Both the position numbers and the translations under genes were made by a program. From a virus: a stretch of 32,917 nt of DNA. The notes beneath the pieces were generated by a model. That model was not told where the DNA came from, did not search any database, and saw only the letters and a program-made list of their open reading frames with translations. The first letter of the stretch is position 1. The number at the start of each line of letters is the position of its first letter. The DNA is taken from the IMG/VR virus record IMGVR_UViG_3300026549_000035, positions 1-32,917 of that record. One strand, given 5' to 3'. Below, piece by piece: positions 7,015 to 29,406 of this stretch.

Positions 7015-7016
7015 GA

Positions 7017-11587: not shown

Positions 11588-11881
11588 TCAAATGTCAAGA
11601 GGTTTTTCAGAAAAAAGTTCTTTTTCTTCAATTTCATAGTCTAAGCCATCAAGATGGAAGAAAAAAGCCTTCTTTTTTAATAAAATTTTAAGCCATTCTT
11701 TACCATATAAGTTTTTTAAACTCAACCATTTAGAATAAATTGAATAATAGCTTGTATAATTTTCACTTAATCCCTTGTTATCAATAAGCCATTGGATTGC
11801 GCTTGCATGGCTGTCACAAACCGCTACAACCTCAGTAGTATCATCAAAACCGTAAGTTTCTGTAATTGTAAATACTGTCAT
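11588..11881 (-). CDS. Hypothetical protein (97 aa), co-transcribed after gene 11912..12097
   Basis: RBS AAAAGGAG. Last codons L-D-I then stop are encoded by the next promoter's -35 (cTTGACAtttga). Confidence 0.6.
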   Translation of the reverse strand: MTVFTITETYGFDDTTEVVAVCDSHASAIQWLIDNKGLSENYTSYYSIYSKWLSLKNLYGKEWLKILLKKKAFFFHLDGLDYEIEEKELFSEKPLDI

Positions 11882-11911
11882 TTTTATCGCTCCTTTTGGA
11901 TAGCTGAGGGG

Positions 11912-12097
11912 TTAACTCTCAGCCCACCAGTCAGCAGTTTTCATCTTTGCGATTTCGCCCTCTAAGCGGTCAAGGCTCAGATTGTTGTCGGGATAGCTTT
12001 CGCATTTTCTTGCGAAGTCAATAGTTTCGGGAGCTTCATGTCCGAACATTCTGATTACTTCGGTCAACATTTCTTCTCTTGTTCTTCTTTCTGTCAT
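11912..12097 (-). CDS. Hypothetical protein (61 aa)
   Basis: Promoter TTGACAagcaagggtttttgtgtTATAAT and RBS AAGGAAAGGAAG. Stop inside hairpin GGCTGAGAGTTAACCCCTCAGC. Confidence 0.6.
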   Translation of the reverse strand: MTERRTREEMLTEVIRMFGHEAPETIDFARKCESYPDNNLSLDRLEGEIAKMKTADWWAES

Positions 12098-12184
12098 TTT
12101 GATAACTTCCTTTCCTTTTTTCTGTCTTTATTATAACACAAAAACCCTTGCTTGTCAAGTGTTTTTTAAACAAAATCTGGCGTT

Positions 12185-12355
12185 TTATTTACGCCAGATT
12201 TCAATGCTCTGTGAGTAGTAGCGGTGACCATTGTCATCAACTGCTTTCAGTTCGCAGTAGGTGAAATTTCTCTTTACTCTGTTAAAGTAAGCTCTCGCTT
12301 TTTCCTCAGTGTTAAATTCCTCATAGGTTTTATAAGCAGATACTACAAATGTCAT
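12185..12355 (-). CDS. Small protein (56 aa), paralog of gene 9181..9363
   Basis: Start MTFVV after AAGGAAAGAGAGG. Promoter TTGACTttaaagacttttcatgcTATAAT. The ORF-track N-terminal extension is rejected. Confidence 0.55.
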   Translation of the reverse strand: MTFVVSAYKTYEEFNTEEKARAYFNRVKRNFTYCELKAVDDNGHRYYSQSIEIWRK

Positions 12356-12476
12356 TTTGTTTTCCTCTCTTTCCTTTTTTCTGTCTTTATTATAGCATGA
12401 AAAGTCTTTAAAGTCAATAGGCAAAGTGCACAAATCGGGAGCGCCCGAGCGCATGAAAGTTTGTGCATTTTGCCTA

Positions 12477-12505
12477 TTGATTTTGTGTGGGGATTGTGCT
12501 ATAAT
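12477..12505 (+). promoter_or_regulatory. Plus-strand promoter TTGATT-17-TATAAT, divergent from the promoter of gene 12185..12355. The inverted repeat TGCACAAA..TTTGTGCA (12427-12467) lies between the two -35 elements
   Basis: Transcript ATTTCCGGCUACGCC... ends at hairpin GGGCTGA..TCAGCCC (12542-12559), which is also the terminator of the convergent gene 12553..12903. Confidence 0.5.
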
Positions 12506-12552
12506 ATTTCCGGCTACGCCGATCGTCCTCGAAAATTAAAAGGGCTGATTGC

Positions 12553-12903
12553 TCAGCCCCAAAGTGAATTAACTGCTATTGAAAGAGACCCTTCTCGAAC
12601 ACCAGTTTCACTGTAACCATAGTATTTGCTATAATCTGTTTGATTTTTTTCTCCTCTTGCTTTAATCTCTGCTTGGATTCTACGCCAACCAATTTCAAAG
12701 CAATAATCTATAAACCATTCAGAATATCTATATTTTTCTCTTCTTGCTTTACTATAGGTCATAACAGCAATTTGATCATTAGGGTATTCTCTTTTTAACT
12801 GTTGCTTTAATGCTTGTAATTCCTCAATGTTAGTGGAGTGTTGGATAATTTTACAACCATCGTGAGAAGGTTTTTCGTTTACTTTAATTACTGCATACTC
12901 CAT
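12553..12903 (-). CDS. Hypothetical protein (116 aa)
   Basis: Promoter TTGACAagCCCGGGCtaatatgcTATAAT. RBS AAAGAGAGAGG. Confidence 0.65.
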   Translation of the reverse strand: MEYAVIKVNEKPSHDGCKIIQHSTNIEELQALKQQLKREYPNDQIAVMTYSKARREKYRYSEWFIDYCFEIGWRRIQAEIKARGEKNQTDYSKYYGYSETGVREGSLSIAVNSLWG

Positions 12904-13009
12904 GATTATTTTCCTCTCTCTTTACTGTGTTTTTATTATAGCATATTAGCCCGGGCTTGTCAAGCGTTTTTTGAAAAAAAATAAAAAAAATAAGACTGAT
13001 TGCTCAGTC

Positions 13010-13324
13010 TTATAAATCTTCATCCATAGCATCTTCATAACACTTTGAACAATAGATTTTATTATTAATTAAATCTTCAAGGCTATCACCGAGTCTTAGT
13101 TCCAAATCTAAGGCGGAAACTGTCTCGCCGCAATCAGGACAAATAAAGATTTTTTGCTCTCTCAGGAAAGTATCTATTCTTTTACCTTCGGCGCTAAGTC
13201 TTGATTTTTCTCTCTGGCGAATTTCTCCACGATATTTATAAACCTTAACATACTTTTCGTGATACTTTGTGTAATAATTATTGGCATAGTCTAGTGCGAG
13301 TTCAGCAATTTCTTTTCTTGTCAT
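13010..13324 (-). CDS. Hypothetical zinc-ribbon protein (104 aa; CPDCGETV...CSKCYED)
   Basis: Start MTRKEIAEL after AAGGAAAGAGAGG. Promoter TTGACAttttgCTCGGGCtatgcTATAAT. Terminator AAGACTGA..TCAGTCTT with a T-run at ~12975-13010. Confidence 0.6.
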   Translation of the reverse strand: MTRKEIAELALDYANNYYTKYHEKYVKVYKYRGEIRQREKSRLSAEGKRIDTFLREQKIFICPDCGETVSALDLELRLGDSLEDLINNKIYCSKCYEDAMDEDL

Positions 13325-13440
13325 TTTTATTTTCCTCTCTTTCCTTTTTTCTGTATTTATTATAGCATAGCCCGAGCAAAATGTCAAGTGTTTTTTGAAA
13401 ATTTTTTTTGTTAATTTTTTAACAATCCATTTCCATAAAT

Positions 13441-13465
13441 AAAAACCGCCGTAGCGGTTTTTATT
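13441..13465 (-). terminator. Intrinsic terminator AAAACCGC-CGTA-GCGGTTTT. A second copy lies at 13764-13786
   Basis: Stem ACCGC/GCGGT with a CGTA loop flanked by A and T runs. Shares the CCGTAGCGG core with repeats in 14150-15310. Confidence 0.6.
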
Positions 13466-13489
13466 TAATTAATCACAGTACATCCAAGT

Positions 13490-13642
13490 TTCAAGTTCTT
13501 TCAAAGATACACCAAGATACTTTGACGCTGACTTCCAGCTTTCATCCAGTTTATCAAAAAAGATATCGTTCTGTTCATCTGTTAAACTATTGATTTTGGC
13601 TTCTACCTTATTGTATGTTTTTGTTAATTTTTTGACTGTCAT
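13490..13642 (-). CDS. Small protein (about 50 aa; MTVKKLTKTYNKVEAKINSLTDEQNDIFFDKLDESWKSASKYLGVSLKRT)
   Basis: RBS AAGAGAGGAG. Promoter TTGACAttttaCTCGGGCtatgtTATAAT. A +1 frame would extend it to 13468 across an A4/T5 run, so the 3' end is uncertain. Confidence 0.4.
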
Positions 13643-13782
13643 TTTTATTATCTCCTCTCTTTATCTTGATTACATTATAACATAGCCCGAGTAAAATGTC
13701 AAGTGTTTTTTTGAAAAAAATAAAAATTTTTTTTGTTAAATTTTTAACAATTTTTCCCAAAATTAAAACCGCCGTAGCGGTT

Positions 13783-13980
13783 TTAATCCATGTGTTCTTG
13801 GCGAACTACAAAGAACTTGTCGACCTTAGTCCAGTCAACCTTGTCACCGTTCCAGAGTCTTGCGGGTTTGGTAGCGTTCAGAGTGTTTACCTCAGCCTCG
13901 GCTCTTTCCACGGTCTTGTAGGTTTCGTATGCGAGATAGCTCTCACCAGTCTTGGTAGTGTAACAGATAGCAGTTGTCAT
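13783..13980 (-). CDS. Small protein (65 aa)
   Basis: Promoter TTGACAtttcctgtaattcatgtTATAAT. RBS AAGGAAAGGAAG. Followed by the CCGTAGCGG terminator. Confidence 0.55.
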   Translation of the reverse strand: MTTAICYTTKTGESYLAYETYKTVERAEAEVNTLNATKPARLWNGDKVDWTKVDKFFVVRQEHMD

Positions 13981-14204
13981 TTTAATACTTCCTTTCCTTT
14001 TTTCTGTCTAAATTATAACATGAATTACAGGAAATGTCAATAGTCAAATTGCACAAAGATAATCGCTAAAAAAAGGTTGGTTTTGTGCATAGTGCCCAAT
14101 TAGGGCTGTGCCGACCGTTGACGTAGATTGTTAATTATTTAACAATCTATCCCCAACCTGTGTCTAACTGATAGATGTTGACACCGTAGCGGTTTACATC
14201 ATTG

Positions 14205-14365
14205 TGTGTATAACACTGTTGTTCTGTGTGTGATACTCTCTCTTTGTCTTTGTGTGTGTTGTGCTTCTCTCTCTCTCTCTTTGCTTCTCTTTGTGTGTAT
14301 GCTTCTCTCTCTCTCTCTCTTTGCTTCTCTCTTACTCTCTTTGAGTGTGTCACACACACAAACGC
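14205..14365. repeat. Low-complexity CT/GT-rich tract with ~38-bp tandem units (GCTTCTCTCTCTCTCTCTTTGCTTCTCTTTGTGTGTAT-like)
   Basis: Read directly from the sequence. Lies 3' of gene 14374..14703. The overlapping ORFs in both strands here are low-complexity artefacts. Confidence 0.7.
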
Positions 14366-14373
14366 CTTGCCCC

Positions 14374-14703
14374 TTAGTCAGCAAAAGGGTCAAGGCGCAC
14401 ACTCAAGATTTCATCATCATAGATGGTTGAAGTTCCCTGATTATCCATGAGTACAATAACAGAGTTATCTTTTTGAAAATTTTCTGTTCCAAAGAACTCC
14501 CAAATCTCTCCATGAGAATCTTCTATTTGAACAGTGTCCGAGGCTGTATCTACATCTACTACTTTAGCCTGCATGGTGTAATTAGTATCATTAGTCGTGG
14601 GTGAACTTGCGCGATAAATAAGACATACTACAAAAATGGTAACTATTACCAAATGTGTTACTACGCAGATGTTAATGATTGCATAGAATGTTTTGTTTTC
14701 CAT
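14374..14703 (-). CDS. Membrane-anchored protein (109 aa; N-terminal TM helix, beta-rich C-terminal domain)
   Basis: Promoter TTGACAagaagccaagagtatgcTATAAT, preceded by the TGCACAAA..TTTGTGCA inverted repeat. RBS AAAGAGAGAGAGG. Confidence 0.65.
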   Translation of the reverse strand: MENKTFYAIINICVVTHLVIVTIFVVCLIYRASSPTTNDTNYTMQAKVVDVDTASDTVQIEDSHGEIWEFFGTENFQKDNSVIVLMDNQGTSTIYDDEILSVRLDPFAD

Positions 14704-14995
14704 GGGTGATTGTCCTCTCTCTCTTTATTGTATCTTTATTATAGCATACTCTTGGCTTCTTGTCAATAGTCAAATTGCACAAAGATAGTATTAGTCTTTT
14801 GTGCATTTTGCCAATAGCACAAACGTTCGAACGCTCCCCCAATCTTGGCACTACGCTGATGGGAGCGTGTGCCGTAGCGGTTACTGGGGCTGTAGGTTGG
14901 TTAGCCAATGCTAACTTAATAGGGAGATTACCCTAATTAGTAAAATAGGGGTTAGGTATTGCTAACTCAATTCAAACAAAAGTTCGAACAAACGT

Positions 14996-15036
14996 CCAGC
15001 CTGTGCGTTGGCTGATAGGAGCCAGCACCGTAGCGG
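14996..15036. repeat. 41-bp direct repeat, copy 2 (CCAGCCTGTGCGTTGGCTGATAGGAGCCAGCACCGTAGCGG). Copy 3 is at 15267-15307 and a diverged copy 1 at 14154-14193
   Basis: 37 bp are identical between copies 2 and 3. All copies end in the CACCGTAGCGG motif. Confidence 0.8.
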
Positions 15037-15625
15037 CATAGCAAGATGCACAAAGAGCCGCAATAGATTTTGTATAGTTTTACCAATCGTTAGAGATTCA
15101 GCAAGAGGGTCGTGCTTCATGGGGGTTTACACAAAAAATTATCGAAGAGCTTATTACACGCAAACTACGGTCGTTGCGCCCAGTAACGACCGTAGCAAAA
15201 CTAACTATCTCGTTTTAGGCGTGGCTAATCTTCACAGAGTTAGCCTTAGCTAATTGGTCTCATACTCCAACCTGTGCGTTGGCTGATAGGAGCCAGCACC
15301 GTAGCGGTTCATTCATTGGGGGTATTTAACTTACCCCAGGGTGTTTGACAGGGGTGAGATGCGACAGTAGGCCCTAGCATTTTTTCTCAATCAGCAATAC
15401 TTTTTATATATTTTTAATGAGATAAAAATGGAAAGAGGGGGGCACTATTTCGGGAAAAAATTTTTTTTAAAGAGAAAAAATTTTTTTGTCTGACCAAAAC
15501 TATCTTGAAACTAATTTTCATTTTCAATTACGATATCAGGAAAAATATTCTTCCCTCTTCTTTTTTTACCTTTTTCAAAAAAAATATGCCGGCCGCAATT
15601 ATCGCCACCGACATTCGAATTATCA

Positions 15626-15913
15626 TTAAACATTACGCACAAATACATGCCAAACTAATCCATCATCCATTTGAACTGTTCCTATATAATCTCCAATATA
15701 ACCATATTTACATCCCGTTCCCAAAACAGTAATTTCCACGGTTATTTTTTCATTTTCTTTCCGATGTTTTCCACTGTACTTTTCTATATGATTTTCAGCC
15801 CACATTACTAAATTATTGTTTTGTTTTCCAACTGTAAAAATTCCAGTAAACCAACCTTTAATTCTTACACATCCGCCTTCTGGAAGAATATATTTGTACA
15901 TTACTTTTTTCAT
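15626..15913 (-). CDS. Hypothetical protein (95 aa) in the AT-rich block
   Basis: Start MKKVMYK after AAAGGATGA. Promoter TTGATT-17-TATAAT at ~15930-15960, back-to-back with the plus-strand promoter at 15973-16001. Confidence 0.55.
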   Translation of the reverse strand: MKKVMYKYILPEGGCVRIKGWFTGIFTVGKQNNNLVMWAENHIEKYSGKHRKENEKITVEITVLGTGCKYGYIGDYIGTVQMDDGLVWHVFVRNV

Positions 15914-15972
15914 AAAAAAATCATCCTTTTTTTTTATTTTTATTATATAATATTTTTTTAAATTAATCAAAT

Positions 15973-16001
15973 TTGACAGAAGAAAAATTTTTTGTTATAA
16001 T
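15973..16001 (+). promoter_or_regulatory. Sigma-A type promoter TTGACA-17-TATAAT for the first plus-strand gene
   Basis: TTGACAgaagaaaaattttttgtTATAAT, then GGAGG and the ATG at 16031. Confidence 0.65.
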
Positions 16002-16030
16002 TCTATTAGAGACTGGAGGTAAGATAATAA

Positions 16031-17078
16031 ATGATAAAACTTGATTATTCTTTAACTTCTCCAGAAGATAGAAATAAATTAGTAAAAAAAATACTCGAAG
16101 AAAATCCTGACCCAGGAGAAAAATATCTAGAAATTTTGGCTGATTACCTTATCTTCGCCATGGAGAAAGAAGAAAAAAAGAAAAAGAAAATTCTTACTGA
16201 AAATAGGATGACTACCGTAAATAAGAGAGAAACATCTTTTGAAGGTCTTGTCGCTCAATTGGAAAATGGCGAAGATGGTATATATAATTTAATAACAAAC
16301 AATAAACAAGTAATATTTCAACCAAAAGTAACAATAACAAAAAAAGATTTAGCAGACATTCCCCCTCTTCGTGAATTGCGCGAGACTATTAGTAATTGGG
16401 AAACAAAATTAAAAACGGCTGAAGGTAAGGATCGTTTTATTATTAAAAAGGCGCTGATAGAAATGCGCAAAGACCAATACATAATAAAAAATTCTTATCG
16501 ACAACCAATTATCCCAAATAAAATAACAAGGTCTTCTAGTTATATCCATTTAGATGATAACACTAACGCATTTGATGAAGAGGGGTATCCTATTTCTGAA
16601 GGATTTTCCTTAATGAATCCAAAAGTTTGTGAAGCTATTTTATGCAACTATTCTCGATTAAAGCAAGATGCGGAAGGAAAGTTTGAAGGCGATACTTGGT
16701 ATATAATCTATGATTTTGAAAATCTTTGCGAAAAAGCCTTAGAAAAATATCCTTTATATATGCGCTTAGTCGAATATAAAATTGATGGTATGCAAAACAT
16801 TGATATTTAGGTTTAGCTTCAATTAGAGTTTGGAATTAAACATAGCGTAGAATACATCTCAAGTTTATGGCGCAATAAAATTCCTAAATTAATTGCGTCC
16901 GCAGCTGAAGATGAATATTTAGACTGGTATTATTTAAATATTGCTAAAGGAAAATATAAAAAATGTAGTCGATGCAACGAAATTAAACTTGCGCACAATA
17001 AATATTTTAGCAAAAATAAAACCAGTAAAGATGGTTTTTATAGTATATGTAAAAGTTGTCGAAATAAGAAAAAAACTT
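16031..17078 (+). CDS. Hypothetical protein. A 259-codon TAG-free body, then tandem in-frame TAG-GTT-TAG (16808, 16814), then an 88-codon C-terminal zinc-ribbon tail (CSRCNEI...CKSCRNKKK) ending at TGA
   Basis: The frame stays open through both TAGs and encodes a plausible CxxC...CxxC domain. The overlapping ORF 16941..17279 in another frame has no RBS. Readthrough depends on TAG being a sense codon. Confidence 0.55.
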
Positions 17079-17146
17079 GACATTGGGCAAAAATTCCAAA
17101 TTAAGGCTAGTTATTTATTATATTTTAATGAAAAGGAGGAATTTTT

Positions 17147-17908
17147 ATGCCTAGTGATGGCAAACAATATTATTGTGAAAAATGTAATAGAACAATGGCT
17201 GCCGAATAGTTTTATTCTTCAAACAATTTGGAGAAATATCCTAACGACGGCAAATTTCCTATGTGCAAAAAATGTATGACAATGCACGTAGACAATTGGA
17301 ATCCAGATAGTTATATGTGGATTATTCAAGAAGCAGATGTTCCATATATCCCAGAAGAGTGGAATAAATTAATGGCTTCATATGCGAAAGATCGTAATAA
17401 AGTCACTGGTATGACTATAATTGGGCGATATCTTTCTAAAATGAAATTAAAACAATTTAGAGATTATCGATGGAAAGATACCGAATTTTTACAAGAGCTT
17501 GCGAAATCTAAAAGAGAATAGATTATGAAGGAGCAAGGATATGATGCTCAATAGATTGCGCTCGCAAATGAAAGAGCTTCTTTCGAGGTCCCTTAGAATA
17601 TTGCGATTCCTGACCTTGCGGCTGAGCCTGTTAATCCGTTCCTTGCGTCTGGAACAGAAGATTATTTTGCAGATTAGTCGGGCGCAAGTGATGATGATAT
17701 TGATTTAACAGACGAAGATAAACTTTATCTTCGTTTAAAATGGGGAAAAACTTATAAGCCAGAGGAATGGGTAAAACTTGAATAGTTATATAATGATATG
17801 ATGAATTCATATGATATTCAAGGAGCAGGACATGAAGATAATCTTAAACTTTTATGTAAAACATCTCTTAAGGCAAATCAATTAATTGATATTGGGGATA
17901 AATCTTAA
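17147..17908 (+). CDS. Hypothetical zinc-ribbon protein (~253 aa) with five in-frame TAG codons (the first at 17204)
   Basis: RBS AAAGGAGG. CxxC..CxxC motifs (YYCEKCNRT...MCKKCMT). TAA stop at 17906-17908, immediately before the intron-like element. Confidence 0.55.
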
Positions 17909-17914
17909 TCTATG

Positions 17915-19010
17915 TTCCCATAAAACTCTCTTAATTGCTGGAAACTCTTAAAGCATTATAAACTACATAGGAAATCTTTTTTAAGATTAAACTAGAATGT
18001 TTGAAAATTATAATGATATATAGACAATCAGCAGCCAAATTATTTAAAAAAGGAATGATCAAAAATAATGTTTAAACAATATTATAATACACCATACGAT
18101 ATTTATGAAGATGGTAGATGTTTTAGTCATTTATCAAATAAATTTTTAACGCCTAAAATGTCTGCTAAATATCCATCTTATAATTTAACTTTTGAAGGCA
18201 AAAAACGTTAGGTAAAAGTGCATCGGATGGTAGCAGAAACTTTTATTCCAAATCCAGAAAATAAGCCAATTGTAAATCATATGGATGGCGATACACATAA
18301 TTTTCATGTAAATAACTTAGAATGGGTTACTTTTAAAGAAAATAATTAGCATGCTTATAATACTGGATTAAGAAAAAATGGTAATCAAACAATTAATAAA
18401 TATATAAGTAATTTACCTAATGAAGAATGGACTGATATAAAAAATTATCCAAATTATTTAATCTCTTCATATGGACGTATTATGAATAAAAGAACTAAAA
18501 GATTATTAAAGCTTTATATAAATCATAATGGATATTATAATGTAAATTTATGGAAAAATAATAAAGGAAAAACTTTACAAGTTCATCCTTTAATTTATTC
18601 TAATTTTACAAAAGATTATGATTTAAAAAACTATGTTATTAATCATAAAGATGGTAATAAACAAAATAATCAAATTTCTAATTTAGAAAAAATTACTTAT
18701 CAAGAAAACAATTTTCATGCTAGCTATATAATAAAGACACATAAACAAGAAAAACCTGTTTATTAGTTAAATGATTAGTATGAAATTATTACATCATTCC
18801 CTTCCATTGCATCCGCATAGCGTATAACCGGCATCTCAAATATTAGTAGAGCCATAAAAAAACAAGGTAAAGCTGGCGGTTATTATTGGAAATTTAAATA
18901 AAAGGTTCAACGACTATCCTAAATGGAGTAGGATACAAGCGTATCCGAAATGGAGAGTATTTATTTTATAGTTTGTAAATAAATAAAGATATAGTCTGAC
19001 CTTTATTGAA
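17915..19010 (+). mobile_element. Group I intron-like element carrying an HNH homing-endonuclease ORF. It has a 5' motif shared with two other elements and 3' ribozyme core R (GGTTCAACGACTATCC) and S (AAGATATAGTCTGACC)
   Basis: R and S elements at ~18903-19001. 5' element AACTCTCTTAATTGCTGGAAACTCTTAA at 17917. Homologous to the elements at 19775-20213 and 21577-22700. Exon junctions not resolved. Confidence 0.45.
18068..18766 (+). CDS. HNH homing endonuclease (~232 aa) with in-frame TAG at 18209 and 18347
   Basis: Motifs [40 protein letters not shown] and [17 protein letters not shown] are canonical HNH (HNH_3-like). RBS AAGGAA. Confidence 0.8.
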
Positions 19011-19048
19011 AAATAAAGAAAAAGTTTAGCGAACTTTAAAACAAAAAA

Positions 19049-19510
19049 ATGGTAGAAGGTTTCCAAAAGATGTCAAAAGTTTATGATTAGCTTATGAAGT
19101 CAGGCAAATTTACTGCAGCTTAGAATAAAGCTGAATCTGGTGAATATGTTGATTCTGTAGGTGAATTAGTAGCTATTTGTGAAAAAGATGGTTTTATTCC
19201 ACGTTATTATTTAGGAGAACCTAATGATAAAGTAGATTAGACTATTATTGATATGAAACGTTATACTCGTACCTTAATTACTGAAGAAACCAATCTTGGT
19301 AATCTTATTGAAGAAGCTATTAAAAATAACCAAAAAGAAGATGAAGAAGAACGCAATTCTAAGAATACTGATACTGGATTATTAGATGTTGAAGAATTAG
19401 AAGAACAATTGCGTGATGAAGACTTTGAAGAGTATAGTGAATTTTTAGATAATGAAGAGGCTAGTGATGCTGACCTTTTAAATTTCTTAACTGAAAATGG
19501 AGGTTAGTAA
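19049..19510 (+). CDS. Putative small terminase subunit (~153 aa, acidic C-terminus) with four in-frame TAG codons
   Basis: Immediately upstream of the large terminase, whose RBS is embedded in its end. The weak RBS of this gene suggests coupling or a splicing relationship with the upstream intron-like element. Confidence 0.4.
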
Positions 19511-19512
19511 TT

Positions 19513-19774
19513 ATGGCTTTACAAGATTTATTAGATATTAATACTAAACGATAGAAAATAGGTTTATCTGAAGAGCGCATTGAAGCTATAAAACCTGCGC
19601 TCAGGAAGTATATTGCGTTTTGGCGAGAATACCCAGACCTTTTTATTGATTTTTTAGTAAGAGGTCCTCGAACAGAAGTAAAAGAAGGAGAATTTCATTT
19701 CTATTTTTATTAGAGAGTTTTTCTTCGTTGTGTTATGCGACATTAGTATGTATATGCCGTATTCCCTCGTGCGT
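19513..19774 (+). CDS. Large terminase subunit, exon 1 (N-terminal ATPase segment up to the Walker A region ...MRHQYVYAVFPRA)
   Basis: RBS GGAGG. Two in-frame TAG codons. The reading frame closes at 19804. The exon end is approximate. Confidence 0.6.
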
Positions 19775-20213
19775 CAAAAAGTGGCGCCAATATTATTTTT
19801 CACTAATTGTGGAAAATTTTGGACAAAACTTCTCTAATTGTGGGAACTCTAAATTCATATGAATTATGAACAAGAGAATCCAGAGTAAATATAAAAGAGG
19901 AGTATGTTTAAATATAAAATTAGATAGTAGTAGTATTACAAAATGCTGCAAAGGGAAATTAAAAACTATAGGTGGTTTTATATTTAAATATGCTTAATTT
20001 TTATAAATCTTTAACGACTATCCTGAAAAAGTCTCCGAGGGATAATAAGTAGAGGCAATAGGAGTAGGGCGCAAGCAAATGGCGTGGGTGAGAGTCCCTT
20101 AAATCGAAAAGAGAAGATTTATTATATTTTATAATAAATGTGAGATAGTCTATTCTTATAGGAAACTATAAGCAGTTCATAAGAGAACGTAATGGAAGTT
20201 GCGATTCCATTAG
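19775..20213 (+). mobile_element. ORF-less group I intron interrupting the large terminase gene
   Basis: 5' element AACTTCTCTAATTGTGGGAACTCTAAATT (19826). R-like TTTAACGACTATCC (20012) and S-like GAGATAGTCTATTC (~20150), followed by P9-like hairpins CTTATAG..CTATAAG and TAATGGAA..TTCCATTA. Exon 2 resumes in a different frame (...DSKSFLSVMALMVRAILYPRANLFVTSGGKEQ). Boundaries approximate. Confidence 0.55.
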
Positions 20214-21574
20214 AATATTAAGACAGTAAATCATTTTTATCTGTTATGGCATTAATGGTTAGAGCAATTCTTTATCCTAGAGCTAATTTATTTGTTACCT
20301 CAGGAGGAAAAGAATAGGCTGCGGGTATCTTAAAAGATAAAGTAAATGAAATATGCACTTTAATTCCTGCACTCGATAGAGAAATTGACCGAAGAAGAGG
20401 TAAAACCCTTGAAGGTAAAGACTATTGTAAATATGTTTTTAGAAATGGGTCTACTTTAGATAATATTGCGGCGAGAGAAAGTTCTAGAGGTAAACGTCGA
20501 CATGGCGGGCTTGTAGAGGAGTGCGTTGGTGTTGATGATTAGATTTTACGAGAAGTAATTATTCCTGTTATGGCAATTCCTCGTCGTTGTATGGATGGTA
20601 GCACATAGGAAACTGAAACATTAAATAAAAGTTAGGTATTTGTTACTACTGCTGGATATAAAGGAACTTATCCATATGAGCGTTTAATTGGTTTTTTAGT
20701 GCGTATGGTTACCCAGCCAGAACGATGTGTAGTTATAGGTGGAACATGGCGATTACCAGTAGAAGTTGGATTACAAAGTAAAACTTTTATTAAAGACCAA
20801 AAAGATGAAGGAACCTTTAATGAAGCTTCTTTCGAACGTGAATATGAATCACGTTGGACTGGTGATGTAGAAGATGCTTTCTTTAATGCTGATATGTTTA
20901 ATAGAAATCGTATTTTAAAACAACCTGAGTATGAAGCTTCTGGTCGTTCTAGTAAAAATTAGTATTATATTATTTCTGTTGACGTAGGTCGTAAAGGCTG
21001 TGATACTGTATGTTGTATTTTTAAAGTATCTCCTTAGCCACAAGGACCTTCTTTAAAATCATTAGTTAATATTGAAATTATTAGTAATGAACACTTTGGT
21101 GACTAGGCTCTTGAATTAAAGAAATTATATTATAAATATAATGCAAGAAGAATTGTAATAGATGGTAATGGACTTGGAATTGGCTTAATTGATTATATGG
21201 TTAAACCTTCTATAGACCCAGAAACAAATGATGTTTTGCCTGATTTTGGAGTATATGGCGGAACTCAAGATGATGCGGCGGATGAATATAAAAAATATAG
21301 AACATCTGACTGTGAATAGGATGCTATTTATATTATAAAAGCTAATGCTCCAATTAATACAGAAGCACATGCTAATGCTTAGGTAAACTTGTCTTCTGGA
21401 AAAGTAAAAATGTTAATTGACGAACGTGATGCTAAAATAAAATTATTAGGAACTAAAGTCGGTCAAAATATGAAACCTGAAGAAAGGTCAATTTATTTAA
21501 AACCATTTACATTAACTTCCATATTAAAAGAGGAAATAGAATTCATTGTTTCCCTATATAGAAATATATAGTAA
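20214..21574 (+). CDS. Large terminase subunit, exon 2 (rest of the ATPase domain plus the C-terminal RNase H-like nuclease domain), with ~12 in-frame TAG codons
   Basis: Nuclease motifs YYIISVDVGRKGCDTVCCIFKV and RIVIDGNGLGIGLIDYMV. Ends TAG-TAA at 21569-21574, followed by terminator-like hairpin CTCTAAcugcGGGaaaCCCcTTAGAG plus a T5 run. Confidence 0.65.
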
Positions 21575-21576
21575 AA

Positions 21577-22700
21577 AAAACTCTCTAACTGCGGGAAACC
21601 CCTTAGAGTTTTTCATACCGCGGTATTATAGTGATATAATACGCAGCAGATATTATAATAGATATTAGATGGTAAAAATTGAAAAAATTGGGCAATCCGC
21701 AACCAAGATACTATTTTAAATTTTATTTATTATTGAAAGGGGAGTTCTGAATTATGTTTGTACCTTTAATAATAAATAATAAGACAACTCAATATTTAAT
21801 TTCTGATATTGGAGAAATTAAAAATATAAAAACAAATAAAATTTTAAAAGGAACTATTAGAAATGGATATTAGATGGTAAAATTAACAATAAATTCATAG
21901 AAAAAAGATTTTTTAATACATAGATTAGTAGCAACAACTTTCTTAGAAAATCCTTTAAATTTACCATAGGTAAATCATAAAGATAAAAATAAATTAAATA
22001 ACGCAGTATCCAATTTAGAGTGGGTATCTATTTAGGAAAATATGCTTCATCGAAGTAAAAATCTATTTATAGATAAGAAAATAAGAAAAAAGAAAGAGAA
22101 AATTATTCTTAATGAACATTGGCGTCAATATAAAAATAGTAATTATTGGATTAGTGATACTGGGAAATGTTATAATCAACAAACTCAATATTTATTATCA
22201 CCCATTAAATCTGGTAATTATTATAAATATTGTTTTTCTATAAATGGAAAGAAAAAATCTGCGTTAATTCATAAATTAGTTTATAGTTTATTTAAAGATG
22301 ATTATGATGAACAAAAACAAATTAATCATATAGATGGTGATAAATAGAATAATTCATTAGAAAATTTAGAATTAGTTACTAATCAATAGAATGTATTACA
22401 TAGCTATTATATTTTACATAATAATATCCATTAGATAGGGCAATTTGACACATAGAACAATTTAATTACTATTTACGATAGTATGAGTGCGGCCGCTCGC
22501 GCAATTAATGGTTCAGTAAGTGCTATTAGTTAGGTTTGTGCGGGAAAAGCTAAAACTCATAAAGGTTTTATTTGGAAAAAAATAGTATAAGGCTCAACGA
22601 CTATCCGGAAGGAGTAGGCTTTTTGCCGAAATGGGAGTCCCTAAACAGATAATGCTGTAGGTGAAGATATAGTCTGAACATTAGTTGAAAAACTAAGATA
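21577..22700 (+). mobile_element. Group I intron-like element carrying a tandem HNH endonuclease ORF. 5' motif AACTCTCTAACTGCGGGAAACCCCTTAGAG and 3' core R (GGCTCAACGACTATCC) and S (GAAGATATAGTCTGAAC)
   Basis: R and S elements at ~22595-22690. Homologous to the other two elements. Whether it splices an exon or is a degenerate intergenic intron is unresolved. Confidence 0.45.
21754..22590 (+). CDS. Tandem-HNH homing endonuclease (~278 aa) with ~9 in-frame TAG codons
   Basis: Two HNH modules (IHRLVATTFLENP...VNHKDKNKLNNAVSNLEWV and LIHKLVYSLF...INHIDGDKQNNSLENLELV). RBS AAAGGGGAG. TAA stop at 22588-22590. Confidence 0.7.
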
Positions 22701-22907
22701 ACGTTATTTTGGATGAATCTCAGAGAAGAAAATGAAGGCACCAATATTATTCTTAAATAGGCTAATAAAGGTATTAAAAAGGATAAGTTTTCAGCTTTTG
22801 AATATGGTTTATATTATATAAAAGTAGAAGAAGATAATAAAAAGAGAAAAAGAAGATTTAATGCTAAAGATTGGATGATGTTTAATTAATAGAAAAGGAG
22901 AGGTTAA

Positions 22908-23265
22908 ATGCGAGCTTCTAGAGGAGAGATCAAGATAGAGGAGATACTTCGTGATGCAGGATTACCTTTTAAAATGGAATATAGTTTTCCAGAATTAAAA
23001 AGTGAAAATGGCAGACCTCTTCGTTTTGATTTTGTTATATTTGATGATGATGGAAATATTGATTTTATTATAGAATTTTAGGGTAGACAGCATTATGAAG
23101 CAAGTCAAAAGTTTGGTGGAAAAAGGGGCCTTTATCAATAGCAACATAATGATAACCGCAAACGGAGATTTTGTGCATTACATGGGTTTACTTTAATTGA
23201 AATCCCTTATACAGAAGAAAATTTGATTAATTATGATTATATAATGCACAGAGCAGGTTATTAAA
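22908..23265 (+). CDS. Putative endonuclease-like protein (~118 aa; D..D..IEFQG signature), with two in-frame TAG codons
   Basis: RBS AAAAGGAGAGG. Motif FDFVIFDDDGNIDFIIEFQGRQHY resembles a PD-(D/E)XK-type core. Assignment tentative. Confidence 0.4.
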
Positions 23266-23289
23266 TGTTTAAGAAAGGAGGTATATGTT

Positions 23290-24984
23290 TTGGATATGGA
23301 TCATTTATCATCTAATGAAAATCTTTTTTTAAATAGTGAACAACGACAAGCACGTATTTTTAGTAAAGGATTTGATATGCTTTCAAGTAATAGATATATA
23401 GATTATCGAACAGCAGATAATAACTTTAGTAAAATTAAAGTTGGAGTTAAAAATTTAGAAGATGCTGTTTTAGAATTAGGAGAATTAAGAAAAACAATTC
23501 CACAATCTCCTTATTATAATAAAAAAGAATTAATGAAAGCTATCTTAAAAAATGATTATAGAAAACTAAGAGAATTTTCTAGATTTTTTTATAAAATAAA
23601 TGGTATTTATTCAAAACTTTGTCAATATATATCTTTTATGTATCGTTATGATTGGTATATTGTTCCAGAGATATTTGATGACAATGTAAAAGAAGAAAAA
23701 GTTTTAAAAGATTTTTCTAAATTATTAAATTATTTAGATAATAGTTATATTAAAAAGATTTGCGGCGAAATGGCTTTAAAGGTTCTTATAGATGGGTGCT
23801 ATTATGGTTATTTAGTAGAATCAAATGATTCAATTATGATTCAAGAACTCCCCGCAGATTTTTGTAGAACTAGATATTCTGTAAAAGGTATGCCGGCAAT
23901 TGAATTTAATATGGCTTTTTTTGATACTTTTAGAGATCTTAATTATCGAATGAGAGTTTTAAATTTATTTCCAAGTGAATTTAAAAAGGGATATATCTTA
24001 TTTAAACAGGGAAAATTACAACCTGATTATTAGGATTATCCTAGTTAGTTAGGCTTCCAAGAACGTTCTGGAGGTTGGTATTTACTTACTCCTGGTTCTG
24101 CGTTTAAGTTTAATTTAAATAATAATGATATTCCACCCTTTATAAATATTATTCCTTATTTAATTGATTTAGACTCTGCCCAAGACTTAGATAGACGTAA
24201 ATAGATGCAATAGTTATTAAAAATTATTATTCAAAAATTACCACTTGATAAAAATGGAGAATTAATTTTTGATGTAGATGAAGCAAGAGATATTCATAAT
24301 AATGCTGTTGCAATGCTGTAGCGAGCTATTGGAGTAGATGTTTTAACTACTTTTGCAGATGTTGAAAGTATTGATATGTCAGATAAAAATACTACAACTA
24401 CAAGAGATGACTTAGCAAAAGTTGAAAGAACAGTTTATAATGCCGCTGGTATTTCAAAAAATGTTTTTAATACAGAAGGAAATCTTGCTTTAGAGAAATC
24501 TATTTTAGAAGATGAGTCTACAGTTAGAAATTTATTGTTATAGTTTATAGTGTTTTTTGACAGAATAGTTTAGACTAAAAATTCTAATAAAAAGAAATAC
24601 GCTTTTAGATTTTATATGTTAGAAACAACTCAATATAATTATCAGAATTTATCTAAAATGTATAAAGAACAAGCTTAGATGGGACATTCAAAAATTCTCC
24701 CTCAAATTGCTTTAGGTCATTCTTAGAGCTTTATTTTAAATACTGCTTATTTTGAAAATAACGTTTTACACTTAACTGAATTAATGTTACCTAACTTATT
24801 AAGTTCAACAATGAATTTAGCAGATTTATTGGGTAAAAATGAACAAAATAATAATAACAATTAGCAAAAGAAAACAGGAGGACAAAATAAATAGGCTTCT
24901 GATAAACAAGAAGCGGGTCGTCCAGAAAAAGCTGATGATGAAAAAAGCGAAAAAACAATTCAAAATAAAGAGTCTATGAATTAA
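23290..24984 (+). CDS. Putative portal protein (~564 aa) with many in-frame TAG codons
   Basis: Position between terminase and scaffold. Size. RBS AAAGGAGG, with a probable TTG or ATG start at 23290-23296. TAA stop at 24982-24984. Confidence 0.55.
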
Positions 24985-24995
24985 GGAGGGTTATA

Positions 24996-26570
24996 ATGAA
25001 ACATACTAGTGTATTAAAATTAAATTCTCCGATTGAATTTATTGAAAGTTCAAAAATAAGTCCTTTTGTATCAAAAGTGCAAATAAAGGTTTGTTATGTT
25101 GGAGAAGAACCAAATAGAAATCATTGTGTTATTACTAAAGATGTTGCAAAAGAAATGGCTCCTAGTTTACGAGGATGTCCAATTGTAGGATTTTATAATG
25201 AGTCTACTGGAGATTTTGAAGAGCATAACAAGTAGATTACTATTTCAAATGGAGAATGGCGAATTACTGATTCAACTACTCCTTATGGTTTTATTGATTT
25301 AAATGCAAAAATTTGGTTTGCTACCTATATTGATGATAACAAAGTTGAAAGAGAATATCTATGCACTGAAGGATATATTTGGGATCATGCTTATCCAGAA
25401 GCAAAAAGAGTTTTAACAAATGGTAATAATCATTCTATGGAATTTGATGAAGAAACTCTTGATACTACCTGGTCAAAAGATTAGAATAAAAGACCTCAAT
25501 TTTTCATTGTAAATGAGGCACTTTTATCTAAACTTTGTATTTTAGGAGAAGATTATGAACCTTGTTTTGAGGGTTCTCAAATTACAGCTTTTTCTTTAGT
25601 TGTTGATAAATCATTTCAAGAGAAAATGTATTCAATGATGAATGAAATAAAAGAATTATTAACAGAAGGAGGAACGAAAGTGTTTAATACATATGCAGTT
25701 GAAATTGGCGATGCTCTTTGGTCTGCTCTTTATAGATATATTGAAAGCACCTACCCAGATGAACAAAGAGACGGGTGTTCAAAATATATAATTGAGGGCA
25801 TATATGAAGAAGGCGGTCAAAAATTTGCAATTTTAAACGACCATTTAAATACAAAATACTATCGTTTAAACTTTTCTATTACTGAAGGAGAAGGATTTTC
25901 TGCTTAGGGCGATCTTATTGAAGTAACTAAAAGTTACACCCCTGCGGCCGAGGCTCAATTCTCCGCAGCTGAAGTTGAGACATATATAAAAGAATATGTC
26001 AAGAAAAAAAATGAGGACAAAAAAGATGAAAAAGATAAAAAGAATTCTGAAGATTCATCAGAAGATAAAGGAAAATCTGAAGATGAAGATAAAAACAATG
26101 AAGGTTCTTCTGAAGATGATGACGATGAAGATAAGAAAAAGAAAAAGTTTTCTTATAATTCTTTAGAAGAAATTCCTGAATATGTTGAACTTTAGAACAA
26201 CTTTTCTAATCTTAAATCCCAAGTATCTAATCTCAATAGCACTATTGAGAATTTAAATAGCGAACTTGCTACTTTACGTGAATTCAAGCTTAAAGCTGAA
26301 CGTAAGGAAAAAGAAGCCAAGATCGCTGAATTCTATATGTTGTCTGACGAGAGTAAAAAAGATATTCTTGAGAATATTGACAATTATTCTCTTGATGATA
26401 TTGAAGCAAAACTTTCAGTTATTTGTTTCCGTAATAAAGTGAGCTTTAAAAATGATGAAGAAAGTGCAGGAAATCAAACCACTTATTCTTTAAATGGAAA
26501 TGAAGAAGAGGATCTTTCTATTCCAGCTTGGGTAAAAGCCGCTTTAGATACTGCTAAAACTTTAAATTAA
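24996..26570 (+). CDS. Putative scaffolding or prohead-core protein (~524 aa; acidic low-complexity linker plus a C-terminal coiled coil), with in-frame TAG codons
   Basis: RBS AAGGAGG. D/E/K-rich tract (KKNEDKKDEKDKKNSEDSSEDKGKSEDEDKNNEGSSEDDDDEDKKKKK) followed by heptad-like NLKSQVSNLNSTIENLNSELATLREFKLKAERKEKEAK. Confidence 0.5.
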
Positions 26571-26590
26571 TAAAGGAGGATATTTGAACG

Positions 26591-27616
26591 ATGATGTTTA
26601 AAGATTTTTTAAATAGCCGCATTCCTGCTGCATATAAATCTCAAGCAAAGTATGTTGAATTCGGCTATGGACAAGTTGAACCAAATCATCTTTCCGCTCA
26701 AAGAACTGGTCAAATTTATGCTCAGCTCCCTGCTGATCCAGCAATTAAAATGCTTGAACAAGGTCAGTTTGTAAAGTATGATTACGCAGCAGATGTTGCT
26801 GGTCAGAATGGCGTTGGTAATGGTATTGGTTTGGTAAATTTCACCGGAGCAGGTGAATGGATGCTCGTTTATAACGAGATTAAACTTTATCGCGATCATC
26901 CAGATGGAACTAAACAATGGGATTGCGAATTTGTTATGTTAAAAGACGATTATCAAGCTCGTATTTATAGTCCATATGATTATGAAAATGCTGAACTTGA
27001 ATATAAAGATTGGCATAGACTTAATGGAGTTGATGAAAAAGGTAATACTTCTATTACTCTTAATCAATATGTAACTCTTGATGTTGAAGGTCAAACCGTT
27101 ACCATCGGTGGAGATCGTTATGCTGTAACTACTGCAACTATTCCTGCAGAAGGCACTCAAGGTGAAGAAGGTTATAAACCAGCTCATGAAGCAAAAGTAT
27201 TCTCTTATAAGGGAACTCAGTATGAGCTTGACGAGACTGGCACTTCTAAACTTCAAGTTCCTGTTGAATACCCTTATGATGATGTAACTAAGGATGTTGA
27301 AGATATCTATGAGTGGGGCTTCACTAATGATCCTTGGAGACGTCTTGGTATTTATCATGAAAAGAAAATGCCTGCAGGTACCGCTATGGTTCCTCGTGTC
27401 TTTAAGACAAATGTAGGAGATTTATTTACAACTAACACTGTTGATGAAACAACACTTGCTGTTGGAGATATTTTAATGCCAAGAACTACTGATGGTATTC
27501 TTGTAAAAAATAACACTACTGGTGCAGATACCGCATCTGGTATGAAATGGCAAGTTGTAAAAGTATATACAATGCCTGATAATCAAAAAGGCGTAAAAGT
27601 AATGCGTATCGCTTAA
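26591..27616 (+). CDS. Abundant structural protein (341 aa), possibly a major head or decoration protein. No in-frame TAG. GC-richer codon usage
   Basis: RBS AAAGGAGG. Uninterrupted in the standard code. Composition distinct from neighbouring late genes. Confidence 0.45.
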   Translation: MMFKDFLNSRIPAAYKSQAKYVEFGYGQVEPNHLSAQRTGQIYAQLPADPAIKMLEQGQFVKYDYAADVAGQNGVGNGIGLVNFTGAGEWMLVYNEIKLYRDHPDGTKQWDCEFVMLKDDYQARIYSPYDYENAELEYKDWHRLNGVDEKGNTSITLNQYVTLDVEGQTVTIGGDRYAVTTATIPAEGTQGEEGYKPAHEAKVFSYKGTQYELDETGTSKLQVPVEYPYDDVTKDVEDIYEWGFTNDPWRRLGIYHEKKMPAGTAMVPRVFKTNVGDLFTTNTVDETTLAVGDILMPRTTDGILVKNNTTGADTASGMKWQVVKVYTMPDNQKGVKVMRIA

Positions 27617-27634
27617 TGAAAGGAGAGAAGAGTA

Positions 27635-28741
27635 ATGTTAGATAAAAATAATCTTATTGCTTTAATGAAGCAAGTTGCTAAAGCTGACCCTTCTGCTCCT
27701 GTTGCTTACTCTTGGGAAGGAGAACAACTTTCTTACGAGGCGCTTAATACTACACTTCGTAATGAGCTTAATGAGTTAGCTGGCACATATAGCCAATATC
27801 GTGAAAATAAGAACCTTATTTTCTCTATGATGGAACAAACTCTTGATGAGATTTTACCTAAAAAGGTAGCTCAAAGATATGATCAATTCGCTGAAGTAAA
27901 GAGCTTTGCTCAAGGCGACAAGGCAGTATTCCGTCGTCCATTGAACAATCGTGCTCGTGCAAAACAATTCATCACTCGCGTTGGACTTGCAGGTATTTAT
28001 GAAGTATTCAAGCTTGGACCAGCAGAGAAAGAAAGCTTCGAAGTTCGCACCAGTGCTATCGGTGGAGCTGCTCAAATTGGATTTGAAGAGTTCCTCGATG
28101 GACGTGTTGATTTCTCAGAAGTAACCCGTATTATCATGGAGGGTATGGACGAGCTTATCTATAAAGAGGTTGCGGCTGCCCTTAAAGCTTCTATCAATCA
28201 ACTTCCACCTGCTAACCGTGTTGCTGCAGTTGGTTTTGATGAAGGTGCTATGGATCGTTTAATTCAAATTGCTGCCGCTTATGGAACTCCAACTATTTAT
28301 TGTACTTATGAATTTGCAGTAAAAATGATTCCAAATGAAGCTTGGCGTTATACCGAAGACATGAAACGTGAACTTTGGGAGACTGGTCGTCTTGCTAGTT
28401 ACAAAGGAACTAAAGTTGTTATTTTAGAGCAAGGTTTTGAAGATGAAACTAATACTCGTAAAGTAATTGATCCTGGTTATGCTTGGGTTATTCCTACTGG
28501 AGCAGATGGTAAGCCAGTAAAGATTGCTTTTGAGGGTAATACAATCGTTGATGAATTCAATAACAAAGATCGCTCTCGCGAGATTCAGGTTTATAAAAAG
28601 GTTGGCGTAACTGCTATTCTTGCTAATAATATTTGTTGCTATGTTGATACCGCTCTTCTTGGTCAAATGATCAATTGGAACCTTAATGGTGTAGACGGTA
28701 ATGTAGCTACTTATGATGGTCGTGCAAGCGGCAATATCTAA
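27635..28741 (+). CDS. Putative major capsid protein (368 aa). No in-frame TAG. Followed by a strong intrinsic terminator
   Basis: RBS AAAGGAGAG. Size and position (after portal, scaffold and head protein). Optimised codon usage. Terminator at 28757-28794. Confidence 0.5.
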   Translation: MLDKNNLIALMKQVAKADPSAPVAYSWEGEQLSYEALNTTLRNELNELAGTYSQYRENKNLIFSMMEQTLDEILPKKVAQRYDQFAEVKSFAQGDKAVFRRPLNNRARAKQFITRVGLAGIYEVFKLGPAEKESFEVRTSAIGGAAQIGFEEFLDGRVDFSEVTRIIMEGMDELIYKEVAAALKASINQLPPANRVAAVGFDEGAMDRLIQIAAAYGTPTIYCTYEFAVKMIPNEAWRYTEDMKRELWETGRLASYKGTKVVILEQGFEDETNTRKVIDPGYAWVIPTGADGKPVKIAFEGNTIVDEFNNKDRSREIQVYKKVGVTAILANNICCYVDTALLGQMINWNLNGVDGNVATYDGRASGNI

Positions 28742-28756
28742 TAAAATATAACGGTA

Positions 28757-28794
28757 AGGGGGAGCTGGGGATATTCCCCTCTCTCCCTTTTTTC
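28757..28794 (+). terminator. Intrinsic terminator after the capsid gene
   Basis: Hairpin GGGGGAGCTGGGGAtattCCCCTCTCTCCC followed by TTTTTT. Confidence 0.6.
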
Positions 28795-28824
28795 ATTTTA
28801 ATAAAGAGATAAAGGAGAAAAAAC

Positions 28825-29406
28825 ATGATTACTGAAAATACTACCTATAATGTAAAAAATAGAAGTTCGAGCGTTGTTGTTTACAGAATTCCAGAAAGCA
28901 ATTTACGTCGTGAATTTGCGCCCGGAGAAACTAAGAAAATTCCTTTTGGAGAATTGGAAAAACTTACTTATCAGCAAGGCGGAAGAGAGCTGCTTGAACA
29001 GTTTTTGCAAATTGTTGATGAAGCTGTAACTCAAGATTTAAATATCCATAGAGAAGTAGAATATGATATGTCTGAAAATCAAGTTAAAGAGTTGTTATTA
29101 ACAGGCTCTATAGATGCATTTTTAGATGCTTTAGATTTTGCTCCAATGGGAGTCATTGATCTTATTAAAACCTTATCTGTTTCATTACCTTTAACAGATT
29201 TTAATAAAAGAAAAATCTTAAAAGAAAAAACTGGTTTTGATGTTGATAAAGCTCTTGCTCATATTGAAGAAGAAAAAGAAGAAGACGGAGGGCATATTCA
29301 ACCAATTTCTCATTAGCGCAGAGTACAGCCAGCTACTTCAAATGGTCGTCGAACTACTACAAATTATAAAGTGGTAAACAGAGAAGCTATAAGTCCAAAA
29401 GAATGA
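28825..29406 (+). CDS. Hypothetical structural protein (~193 aa). One in-frame TAG at 29314, then a TGA stop
   Basis: RBS AAAGGAG. The ORF track stops at the TAG. The frame continues 30 codons to TGA. Confidence 0.45.

Follow-up and report, generated by a model that had tools for sequence, protein, structure and literature searches.

A 32,917-nucleotide stretch of viral DNA (positions 1 to 32,917 of IMG/VR record IMGVR_UViG_3300026549_000035, hereafter the window) carries, as we conclude with high confidence, three mobile group I introns, all of subgroup IA, a P7.1/P7.2 type common in phages, that interrupt two late DNA-packaging genes lying side by side in a gut phage, a large SPbeta/Schiekvirus-like siphovirus whose late genes use TAG for glutamine. 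An earlier note on this DNA had recognised three homologous group I introns here, and their exon junctions, their agreement with the splice-site rules and covariance models bear this out. According to the predicted junctions none of them lies outside a gene: intron 1 (17900-19051, 1152 nucleotides (nt), IA-type) interrupts a YonG-like gene directly upstream of the terminase gene, and intron 2 (19775-20222, 448 nt, its endonuclease gene deleted) and intron 3 (21538-22711, 1174 nt, IA-type) both interrupt the gene for the large terminase, TerL. Introns and exons are all on the plus strand. The YonG-like gene has a first exon (17147-17899) that ends in ...LIDIGD and whose final base provides the U for the U·G pair at the splice site, and a second (19052-19510) that starts with VEGFQKMSKVYDQ... 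and ends at a TAA stop (19508-19510). TerL exon 1 (19513-19774) ends in ...AVFPRA plus the T of a Tyr codon; exon 2 (20223-21537) supplies the AC of that codon and extends from SKSFLSV... to ...LKEE plus AT; exon 3 (22712-22889) opens with the G of a Met codon, continues as MNLREENEG...WMMFN and stops at TAA 22887-22889.

The splice sites were first predicted from group I rules (a U·G pair in P1, a terminal G, and P10) and then aligned to intron-less alleles. With a caret marking each boundary, the junctions are ATTGGGGAT^aaatc...aaaatg^GTAGAAGG for intron 1, CGTGCGT^caaaa...attaag^ACAGTAAA for intron 2 and GAGGAAAT^agaat...attttg^GATGAATC for intron 3, and the intron-less sites of two relatives (L001 and L002) read ATTGGAGAT^GTAGAAGG and AAGAAGAGAT^GATGAATC. 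When the window was compared by blastn with intron-less relatives of 92-96% and 76-80% DNA identity, the alignments broke at 17899 and 19052, at 19772-4 and 20223-7, and at 21537 and 22712. Since the two members of each pair adjoin in the relatives, the introns are precise insertions inside genes: the first pair is contiguous in the intron-less loci, the third in L001, L002, L003 and a further relative, L128, and intron 2 is an insertion relative to L001, L002 and L003.

Removal of the introns restores reading frames that match the intron-less alleles. The predicted spliced YonG-like protein has 403 amino acids (aa), the same as the uninterrupted genes of L001 and L002 (98% aa identity); its junction peptide, LIDIGD^VEGFQK, recurs unchanged in L001, L002 and L003, and a match to PHROG 3314 crosses the junction in a single stretch. 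The predicted spliced TerL has 584 aa. A search of 5.8 billion proteins returned uninterrupted TerL homologues (P0001 to P0120), mostly of 584 aa and 75-99% identical, in which the junction peptide FPRAYSKSFLSV is invariant, and the junction peptide LKEEMMNLREENEG varies at one M/L position only. On the contigs of the closest homologues the two genes are likewise uninterrupted, with 403 aa (Pfam YonG_N) and 584 aa. The predicted junction of intron 2 also agrees with the earlier proposal that the middle copy splits TerL at a Walker-A-like motif (FPRAY^SKS). Pfam searches with TerL and the YonG-like protein gave no match and PHROGs gave only weak terminase matches; the identity of TerL rests on tblastn matches to annotated terminases of Enterococcus, Geobacillus and Bacillus phages. 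It is 45% identical to the proteins of Enterococcus phages VRE9_4, H1 and EF1, with those of Geobacillus phage E3 and phAss-1 and the SPbeta-like YonF more distant, and it belongs to the large Firmicutes siphoviruses.

Each intron has the anatomy of a group I ribozyme. All three 5' exons end in U (17899, 19774, 21537), which the minimum-energy folds set opposite a G in the P1 hairpin, and the last intron base is G (19051, 20222, 22711) at positions fixed independently by the intron-less alleles. The core helices P3 to P8 follow in canonical order together with the P, Q, R and S elements. For intron 1 the helices are P1 (17893-17900/17913-17920), P3 (17925-31/18952-58), P4 (17936-41/18028-33), P5 (17946-48/18022-24), P6 (18034-36/18904-06), P6a (18040-48/18893-18901), P7 (18912-16/18992-96), P7.1/P7.2 (18917-18946), P8 and a GAAA-looped P9 (19001-19018), plus a P10 of 5 base pairs (bp). 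Intron 3 has P1 (21532-38/21547-53), a 7-bp P10 (21541-47 with 22712-18 of exon 3), P2 (21554-59/21566-71), P3 (21580-85/22633-38), P4 (21590-95/21696-21701), P5 (21599-01/21690-92), P6a (21708-14/22582-88), P7 (22599-03/22670-74), P7.1/P7.2 (22604-22627), P8 and again a GAAA-looped P9 (22681-96). Intron 2 has P1 (19771-76/19782-87, pairing GCGU^CA with UGGCGC), a long P2 hairpin, P3 (19829-35/20110-16), P4 (19839-44/19879-84, with one mismatch), P7 (20016-20 with ~20150-54), an enlarged P7.1/P7.2, P8, a GAAA-looped P9 (20155-72), P9.1 and P9.2. P7.1/P7.2 stands between P7 and the P3' strand in all three introns, which therefore belong to subgroup IA. Among the three copies P3, P4, P5 and P8 differ, as read from the sequence, by compensatory changes, for example ACUCUCU/GGAGAGU versus CUUCUCU/AGAGAAG in P3 and UCU/AGA versus CCC/GGG in P5.

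Using the exact R...S core as a probe, we found the core in more than 120 viral contigs, and ORF-less introns (lacking an open reading frame) at 32 of these loci score 51-114 bits on the Rfam group I model RF00028. Two purpose-built models were then compared with the window. R1, for the 3' half (P7-P7.1-P7.2-P8-P7'-P9), is based on an alignment of 81 unrelated viral introns in which P7.2, P8 and P9 covary strongly and double compensatory changes occur at 16 of the 24 pairs. Its matches in the window are all on the plus strand and number three, with 89.9 bits for 18900-19031, 75.3 bits for 22587-22710 and 46.9 bits for 20004-20185. R2 describes P3-P4-P5-P4' and was built from 30 introns already recognised by Rfam; 97% of the cells in its alignment are paired, and none of 500 shuffles reached the observed covariation. 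Its matches are at 17923-18036 (46.6 bits), 21577-21704 (44.4 bits) and, weakly, 19826-19885 (13.7 bits, E=0.044). R2 also scores 22.4 bits on the minus strand at 26728-26756, within a plus-strand coding region; as this candidate fourth copy is just a AAUUGCUGGA/UCAGCAG hairpin that lacks P5 and has no 3' half in its vicinity, it was rejected as a chance match. The check by covariance model that had been suggested thus came out in two ways: RF00028 gave no match at its gathering score, and R1 and R2 match all three introns, in the expected order and on the expected strand.

The repeated motifs from which the introns had been recognised are P, Q, R and S, the classical group I elements. They are less uniform than had been described. 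The R element CAACGACTATCC is exact at 18908-18919 and 22595-22606, and the middle copy (TAACGACTATCC, 20012-20023) has one mismatch; about 0.03 such matches are expected by chance. The S element AAGATATAGTCTGA is exact in copies 1 and 3 (18986-18999 and 22664-22677), and the middle copy holds a shortened variant, GTGAGATAGTCTA (~20146-20158), which is not matched within 3 mismatches. The shared 5' motif as written, AACTyTCTaAnTGyGGGAAAC, has its sole exact match in copy 3 (21579-21599), copies 1 and 2 differing from it by small indels (AACTCTCTTAATTGCTGGAAAC at 17924 and AACTTCTCTAATTGTGGGAAC at 19829), and the P3-P4-P5 model finds all three 5' regions. Its distance upstream of R, given as 0.4-1.1 kb, measures 0.98, 0.18 and 1.0 kb in copies 1, 2 and 3.

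Relatives of the introns show that the guide sequences change together with the exons. Uninterrupted genes are found in 76 of 80 TerL relatives on viral contigs. Three relatives (L205, L206 and L210, TerL 64% identical in aa) hold a 333-nt intron at the codon of intron 3 (~aa 525-527). It shares the insertion point and a homologous core with intron 3 (79% identity over the 5' core), and differs from it in having no endonuclease gene and a guide matched to its own exons. In L205 and L210 this orthologue scores 62-62.8 bits on RF00028, above the gathering score of 50. P1 there is AGAGAU/GUCUC versus GGAAAU/GUUUCC in the window, P10 is GUUCAUU/GAUGAAC versus AUUCAUU/GAUGAAU, and P2 is compensated too; these changes are direct covariation support for the splice-site helices. 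In the relatives of intron 2 found in L127 and L129, P8, P9.2 and P7.2 differ by compensatory changes. At the intron 2 site the intron-bearing alleles (the window and L128) read GCG T^AC AGT and all three intron-less alleles GCT T^AT TCT, the synonymous changes creating the GCGU/GCGC pairing of P1; more generally, synonymous differences between intron-bearing and intron-less alleles cluster at the insertion sites. L128 is without intron 3, and L001, L002 and L003 are without all three introns. L210 has a second intron at about TerL aa 404 (7206-7968), whose HNH ORF has one module only. In this group of phages TerL appears to be a hot spot for introns.

The earlier note's assignment of HNH homing-endonuclease ORFs to copies 1 and 3 is supported by Pfam. 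Gene 1 (18068-18901, plus strand, 277 aa, 5 in-frame TAG) lies in the P6a loop of intron 1 and gene 3 (21754-22590, plus strand, 278 aa, 9 in-frame TAG) in that of intron 3. Both consist of two modules, each a NUMOD4-like beta-sheet plus HNH_3, followed by a NUMOD1/I-HmuI-like tail, an internal tandem duplication, and they are 37% identical to each other (BLASTP). Pfam finds HNH_3 in two stretches (E=1.2e-16) and NUMOD4 in gene 1, and HNH_3 in two stretches (E=1.4e-19), NUMOD4, NUMOD1 and I-HmuI_NUMOD-like in gene 3, so that the HNH and NUMOD modules of an I-HmuI-type homing endonuclease are present. By sequence, the second module plus the tail matches I-HmuI (1u3e, E=1.6e-17), in gene 1 at residues 120-215. 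With the predicted fold (mean predicted local distance difference test score, pLDDT, 89.8), Foldseek returned I-HmuI 1u3e as the sole significant PDB match (E=1.3e-10, 172 columns). The HNH His, Asn and Asn of both modules are invariant in a 30-sequence alignment; in one of 54 sequences the H/N/N of module 1 is invariant and the His of module 2 at least 90% conserved. The family has more than 1000 metagenomic homologues of about 277 aa.

What remains of the endonuclease gene in intron 2 is an ORF of 43 aa (19866-19997, plus strand), in which the N-terminal 16 aa are fused in frame to the C-terminal 27 aa; the C-terminal part matches Pfam I-HmuI_NUMOD-like (E=4.7e-5). L128, which is 95% identical, has an intron 2 whose 298-aa endonuclease gene, of the same tandem-module family, is intact (L128 731-1627), and relative to it the window shows an in-frame deletion of 765 nt at 19915.

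The endonuclease genes are written in the code of the late genes, since with 5 and 9 in-frame codons TAG is about as frequent in them as CAA. G+C content is 34% over the window, whose plus-strand genes contain many TAG codons in frame from 16 kb on, and the total ORF length about doubles when TAG is read through. TerL has 13 TAG codons, of which 7 are CAA or CAG in L003 (77% identical), and we therefore read TAG as Gln. In the first 16 kb (1-15970) the minus strand has 11 ORFs of at least 110 aa, 9 of them without TAG and 2 with one, whereas the plus-strand late genes (16031-32732) mostly have 1-13. TAG is absent altogether from two late genes (26591-27616 and 27635-28741), although they have 14-17 Gln codons, and these two may be strongly expressed genes for capsid or scaffold proteins.

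Several points weigh against the interpretation given above. RF00028 yields no group I match at its gathering score (50 bits) in the whole window, nor at E≤10 in 17000-23500; in a narrow search the 3' half of intron 2 reached 21.8 bits (E=0.002), below the gathering score. We attribute this failure to the ORFs of 0.13-0.84 kb in the P6a loop, which split the core beyond the tolerance of the 253-position model; the P6a stems flanking the ~840-nt ORFs are UUAUUUAAA/UUUAAAUAA in intron 1 and AUACUAU/AUAGUAU in intron 3. In intron 2 the P4 mismatch is a G-G, the 5' half has the weak R2 match given above, P1 is short (4 exon and 2 intron pairs), and neither inspection by eye nor the folds gave a convincing P10; this intron may splice less efficiently or need help. 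A candidate P10 strand, AUUGU (~19810) with ACAGU, was rejected, as it lies inside the P2 stem. No suppressor tRNA(CUA) was seen in the 33-kb window, whose sole tRNA is a tRNA-Lys(UUU) on the minus strand (4001-4075), an absence that says little because the complete genome is perhaps 130-200 kb long and the window only part of it. Splicing of the three introns is a prediction from their anatomy, and the HNH enzymes would be expected to cut or nick the intron-less allele near the insertion site.

Following from the points on intron 2, it could be argued that this copy is a decaying relic that splices poorly or not at all, leaving TerL defective or dependent on a trans-acting factor or the protein of another intron. 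The weak 5'-half match, in whose model alignment two P4 pairs are missing, the G-G mismatch, the lack of a detectable P10 and the reduction of the endonuclease gene to 43 aa would all fit. We consider this unlikely, given that the same core and P4 are kept at 96-98% identity in L128 with its intact endonuclease gene, that the 3' half scores 46.9 bits, and that the compensatory changes in L127 and L129 indicate a subtype under structural selection. The exon flanks, moreover, are adapted to the intron, and TerL is essential and its exons are without damage.

The earlier note had placed copies 1 and 3 immediately after the stop codons of the upstream genes, a position it called unusual for introns, and had suggested that they may be degenerate, lie in a 3' untranslated region or create an exon tail. 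Stops in frame with the upstream exons do occur at 17906-17908 and 21572-21574, soon after the 5' ends of the repeats, as had been noted, but they lie 7 and 35 nt inside the introns, as is usual for group I introns. The frames resume at 19052 and 22712, the protein lengths and junction peptides match those of the uninterrupted homologues, and the pairings of P1 and P10 involve the true exon ends. The stops ending at 17908 and 21574 are thus intronic, and therefore no copy stands after a gene end or in a 3' untranslated region. We see hardly any chance that this reading is correct, and the intron-less alleles already refute it. The earlier note thus correctly recognised ordinary elements but had the gene context wrong for two of the three copies.

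The exon ends proposed for TerL also have to be moved. Exon 1 had been given as ending in ...VFPRASKSG, with the tripeptide SKS encoded on both sides of the junction; with exon 1 ending at 19774 and exon 2 starting at 20223, the first SKS(G) is a read-through of the first intron bases (CAAAAAGTGG), and mature TerL has a single SKS, in FPRAYSKSFLSV. Without splicing of intron 2, exon 1 would run on through 19775-19806 as ...FPRASKSGANIIFH up to a stop, imitating FPRAYSKSF. A target-site duplication was considered for the two SKS stretches and rejected. We treat the duplication as a coincidence, because the two DNA stretches differ (TCAAAAAGT versus AGTAAATCA) and are unrelated, the first lying within the upper stem and loop of P1.

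Insertions of a non-ribozyme kind (free-standing endonuclease cassettes, inteins or elements like insertion sequences), with the genes split into separately translated pieces, would agree with the RF00028 result and with the existence of phage genes split by free-standing endonuclease genes in T4-type phages, and are nonetheless highly improbable, as neither a start codon nor a ribosome-binding site is suitably placed for the downstream exons, TerL exon 2 would start in the middle of the Walker A motif, the out-of-frame insertions exclude inteins, and all group I core helices are present and covarying.

On the group I reading, each transcribed intron would fold into a P1-P9 ribozyme, in which an external guanosine would attack after the U of the P1 U·G pair; the freed 5' exon would then attack after the terminal G, giving ligated exons with the 403-aa and 584-aa frames restored. 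The I-HmuI-like HNH genes in the P6a loops of introns 1 and 3, with their own ribosome-binding sites, would be expected to act during co-infection, when the enzyme would cut or nick an intron-less allele and repair would copy the intron and some flanking exon sequence (homing). Because of the 5 and 9 TAG codons, full-length enzyme should be made only once TAG suppression by the phage is active. Intron 2, which has lost its endonuclease gene by the in-frame deletion, should now be carried along as a passenger that only splices. The relatives, which variously lack the introns, have one of them or combine them differently, illustrate the usual homing cycle of gain, degeneration and loss.

Comparable systems are well known. 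The T4 td and nrdB introns and the SPO1 DNA-polymerase intron, which encodes I-HmuI, are IA introns with an endonuclease ORF in a peripheral loop. The introns of the window are like them in the P/Q/R/S core, in P7.1/P7.2 between P7 and P3', in the GAAA-capped P9, in the P6a-loop ORF with its own ribosome-binding site and in the location at a conserved site of an essential gene, and their enzymes share the I-HmuI family with SPO1, by sequence and by fold match. They are unlike the T4 and SPO1 introns in the host genes (YonG-like and TerL), in the extra N-terminal binding-plus-HNH module and in the in-frame TAG read as Gln.

Published work lists terminases with the common targets of group I introns in phages (PMC3984707). 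In the gut Jug phages terL is split by group I introns into two or three pieces, and metatranscriptome reads support the splicing of 37 of 76 predicted introns, including those of split terL (Sci Adv 2026, PMC12880540). The Jug introns resemble those of the window in leaving terL in two or three pieces and in that some carry HNH genes (PMC12880540), but they are mostly ORF-less, of about 206 nt, and in an unrelated TerL. The TerL of Enterococcus phage EF1 (L004, MF001358.1, 76.7-79.8 kb) is broken at about aa 202, 232 and 295 in the numbering of the window TerL, its pieces being annotated as separate hypothetical proteins and one 'HNH homing endonuclease # Phage intron'. This TerL probably carries three unannotated introns; in the Enterococcus phages EF1 and EF5, where terL is apparently split by group I introns, the EF1 sites (aa 202/232/295) differ from those of the window (aa 87/88 and ~525-527). 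The Agate phages have a group I intron endonuclease gene with a reassigned stop codon in frame, which its authors propose delays the enzyme until late infection (Borges et al., bioRxiv 10.1101/2021.08.26.457843). That case concerns TGA read as Trp and an intron in an early gene, the window TAG read as Gln and introns in late packaging genes.

With TAG read through, the ORFs of the region comprise, in order, a sigma-factor-like gene (16031-17080), an ORF ending at 17908, the 277-aa HNH ORF, a fragment (19040-19510), a TerL N-terminal ORF ending at 19806, a long TerL ORF (20222-21574) and the 278-aa HNH ORF, with the stretch 22700-22890 left without ORF assignment. The first of these, which is also the first gene of the late operon, matches the phage sigma-factor family phrog_5767 (E=1.5e-59), and its product has a Cys-rich C-terminal tail with weak matches to HNH and Lar-like families. 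Downstream of TerL, L001 (3867-4751) and L002 (4944-5828) have an extra 294-aa gene with a weak DUF723 match, between TerL and a DUF2726 gene; it is missing from L128 and from the window, where 22890 runs straight to 22908, and may be a free-standing mobile nuclease gene in a neighbouring intergenic site. A megablast search of 16000-25000 against GenBank phages returned only 50-nt intron-core matches (phiKZ-like and Bacillus phages) and no close relative. An unrelated viral contig (L031, 1848-2415) has a ROOL RNA (197 bits) inside a tRNA array.

These introns are elements of a well-known kind and change nothing in what is known of group I introns. Default gene callers and Rfam would nevertheless report a truncated YonG-like gene, three TerL fragments and zero introns, and since TerL is a standard marker of phage phylogeny, its three exons need joining before use. 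The locus and its close relatives offer a clear natural snapshot of the homing cycle, in which identical sites are seen empty, with an intron that carries its endonuclease gene, with one that has lost it, or with an ORF-less orthologue, and the locus makes a TAG-recoded addition to the single published intron endonuclease in a phage alternative code. The enzymes provide a further lead. I-HmuI has one module and nicks one strand, whereas the enzymes of the window have two binding-plus-HNH modules, and a full-text literature search for tandem-HNH homing endonucleases turned up no description, only unrelated systems. Tentatively, and with more doubt than confidence, we suggest that they are an undescribed single-chain 'double I-HmuI' whose synthesis is gated to late infection by the 5-9 TAG codons. 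If so, such an enzyme could cut both DNA strands, and the introns would couple homing to the genetic-code switch of the phage.

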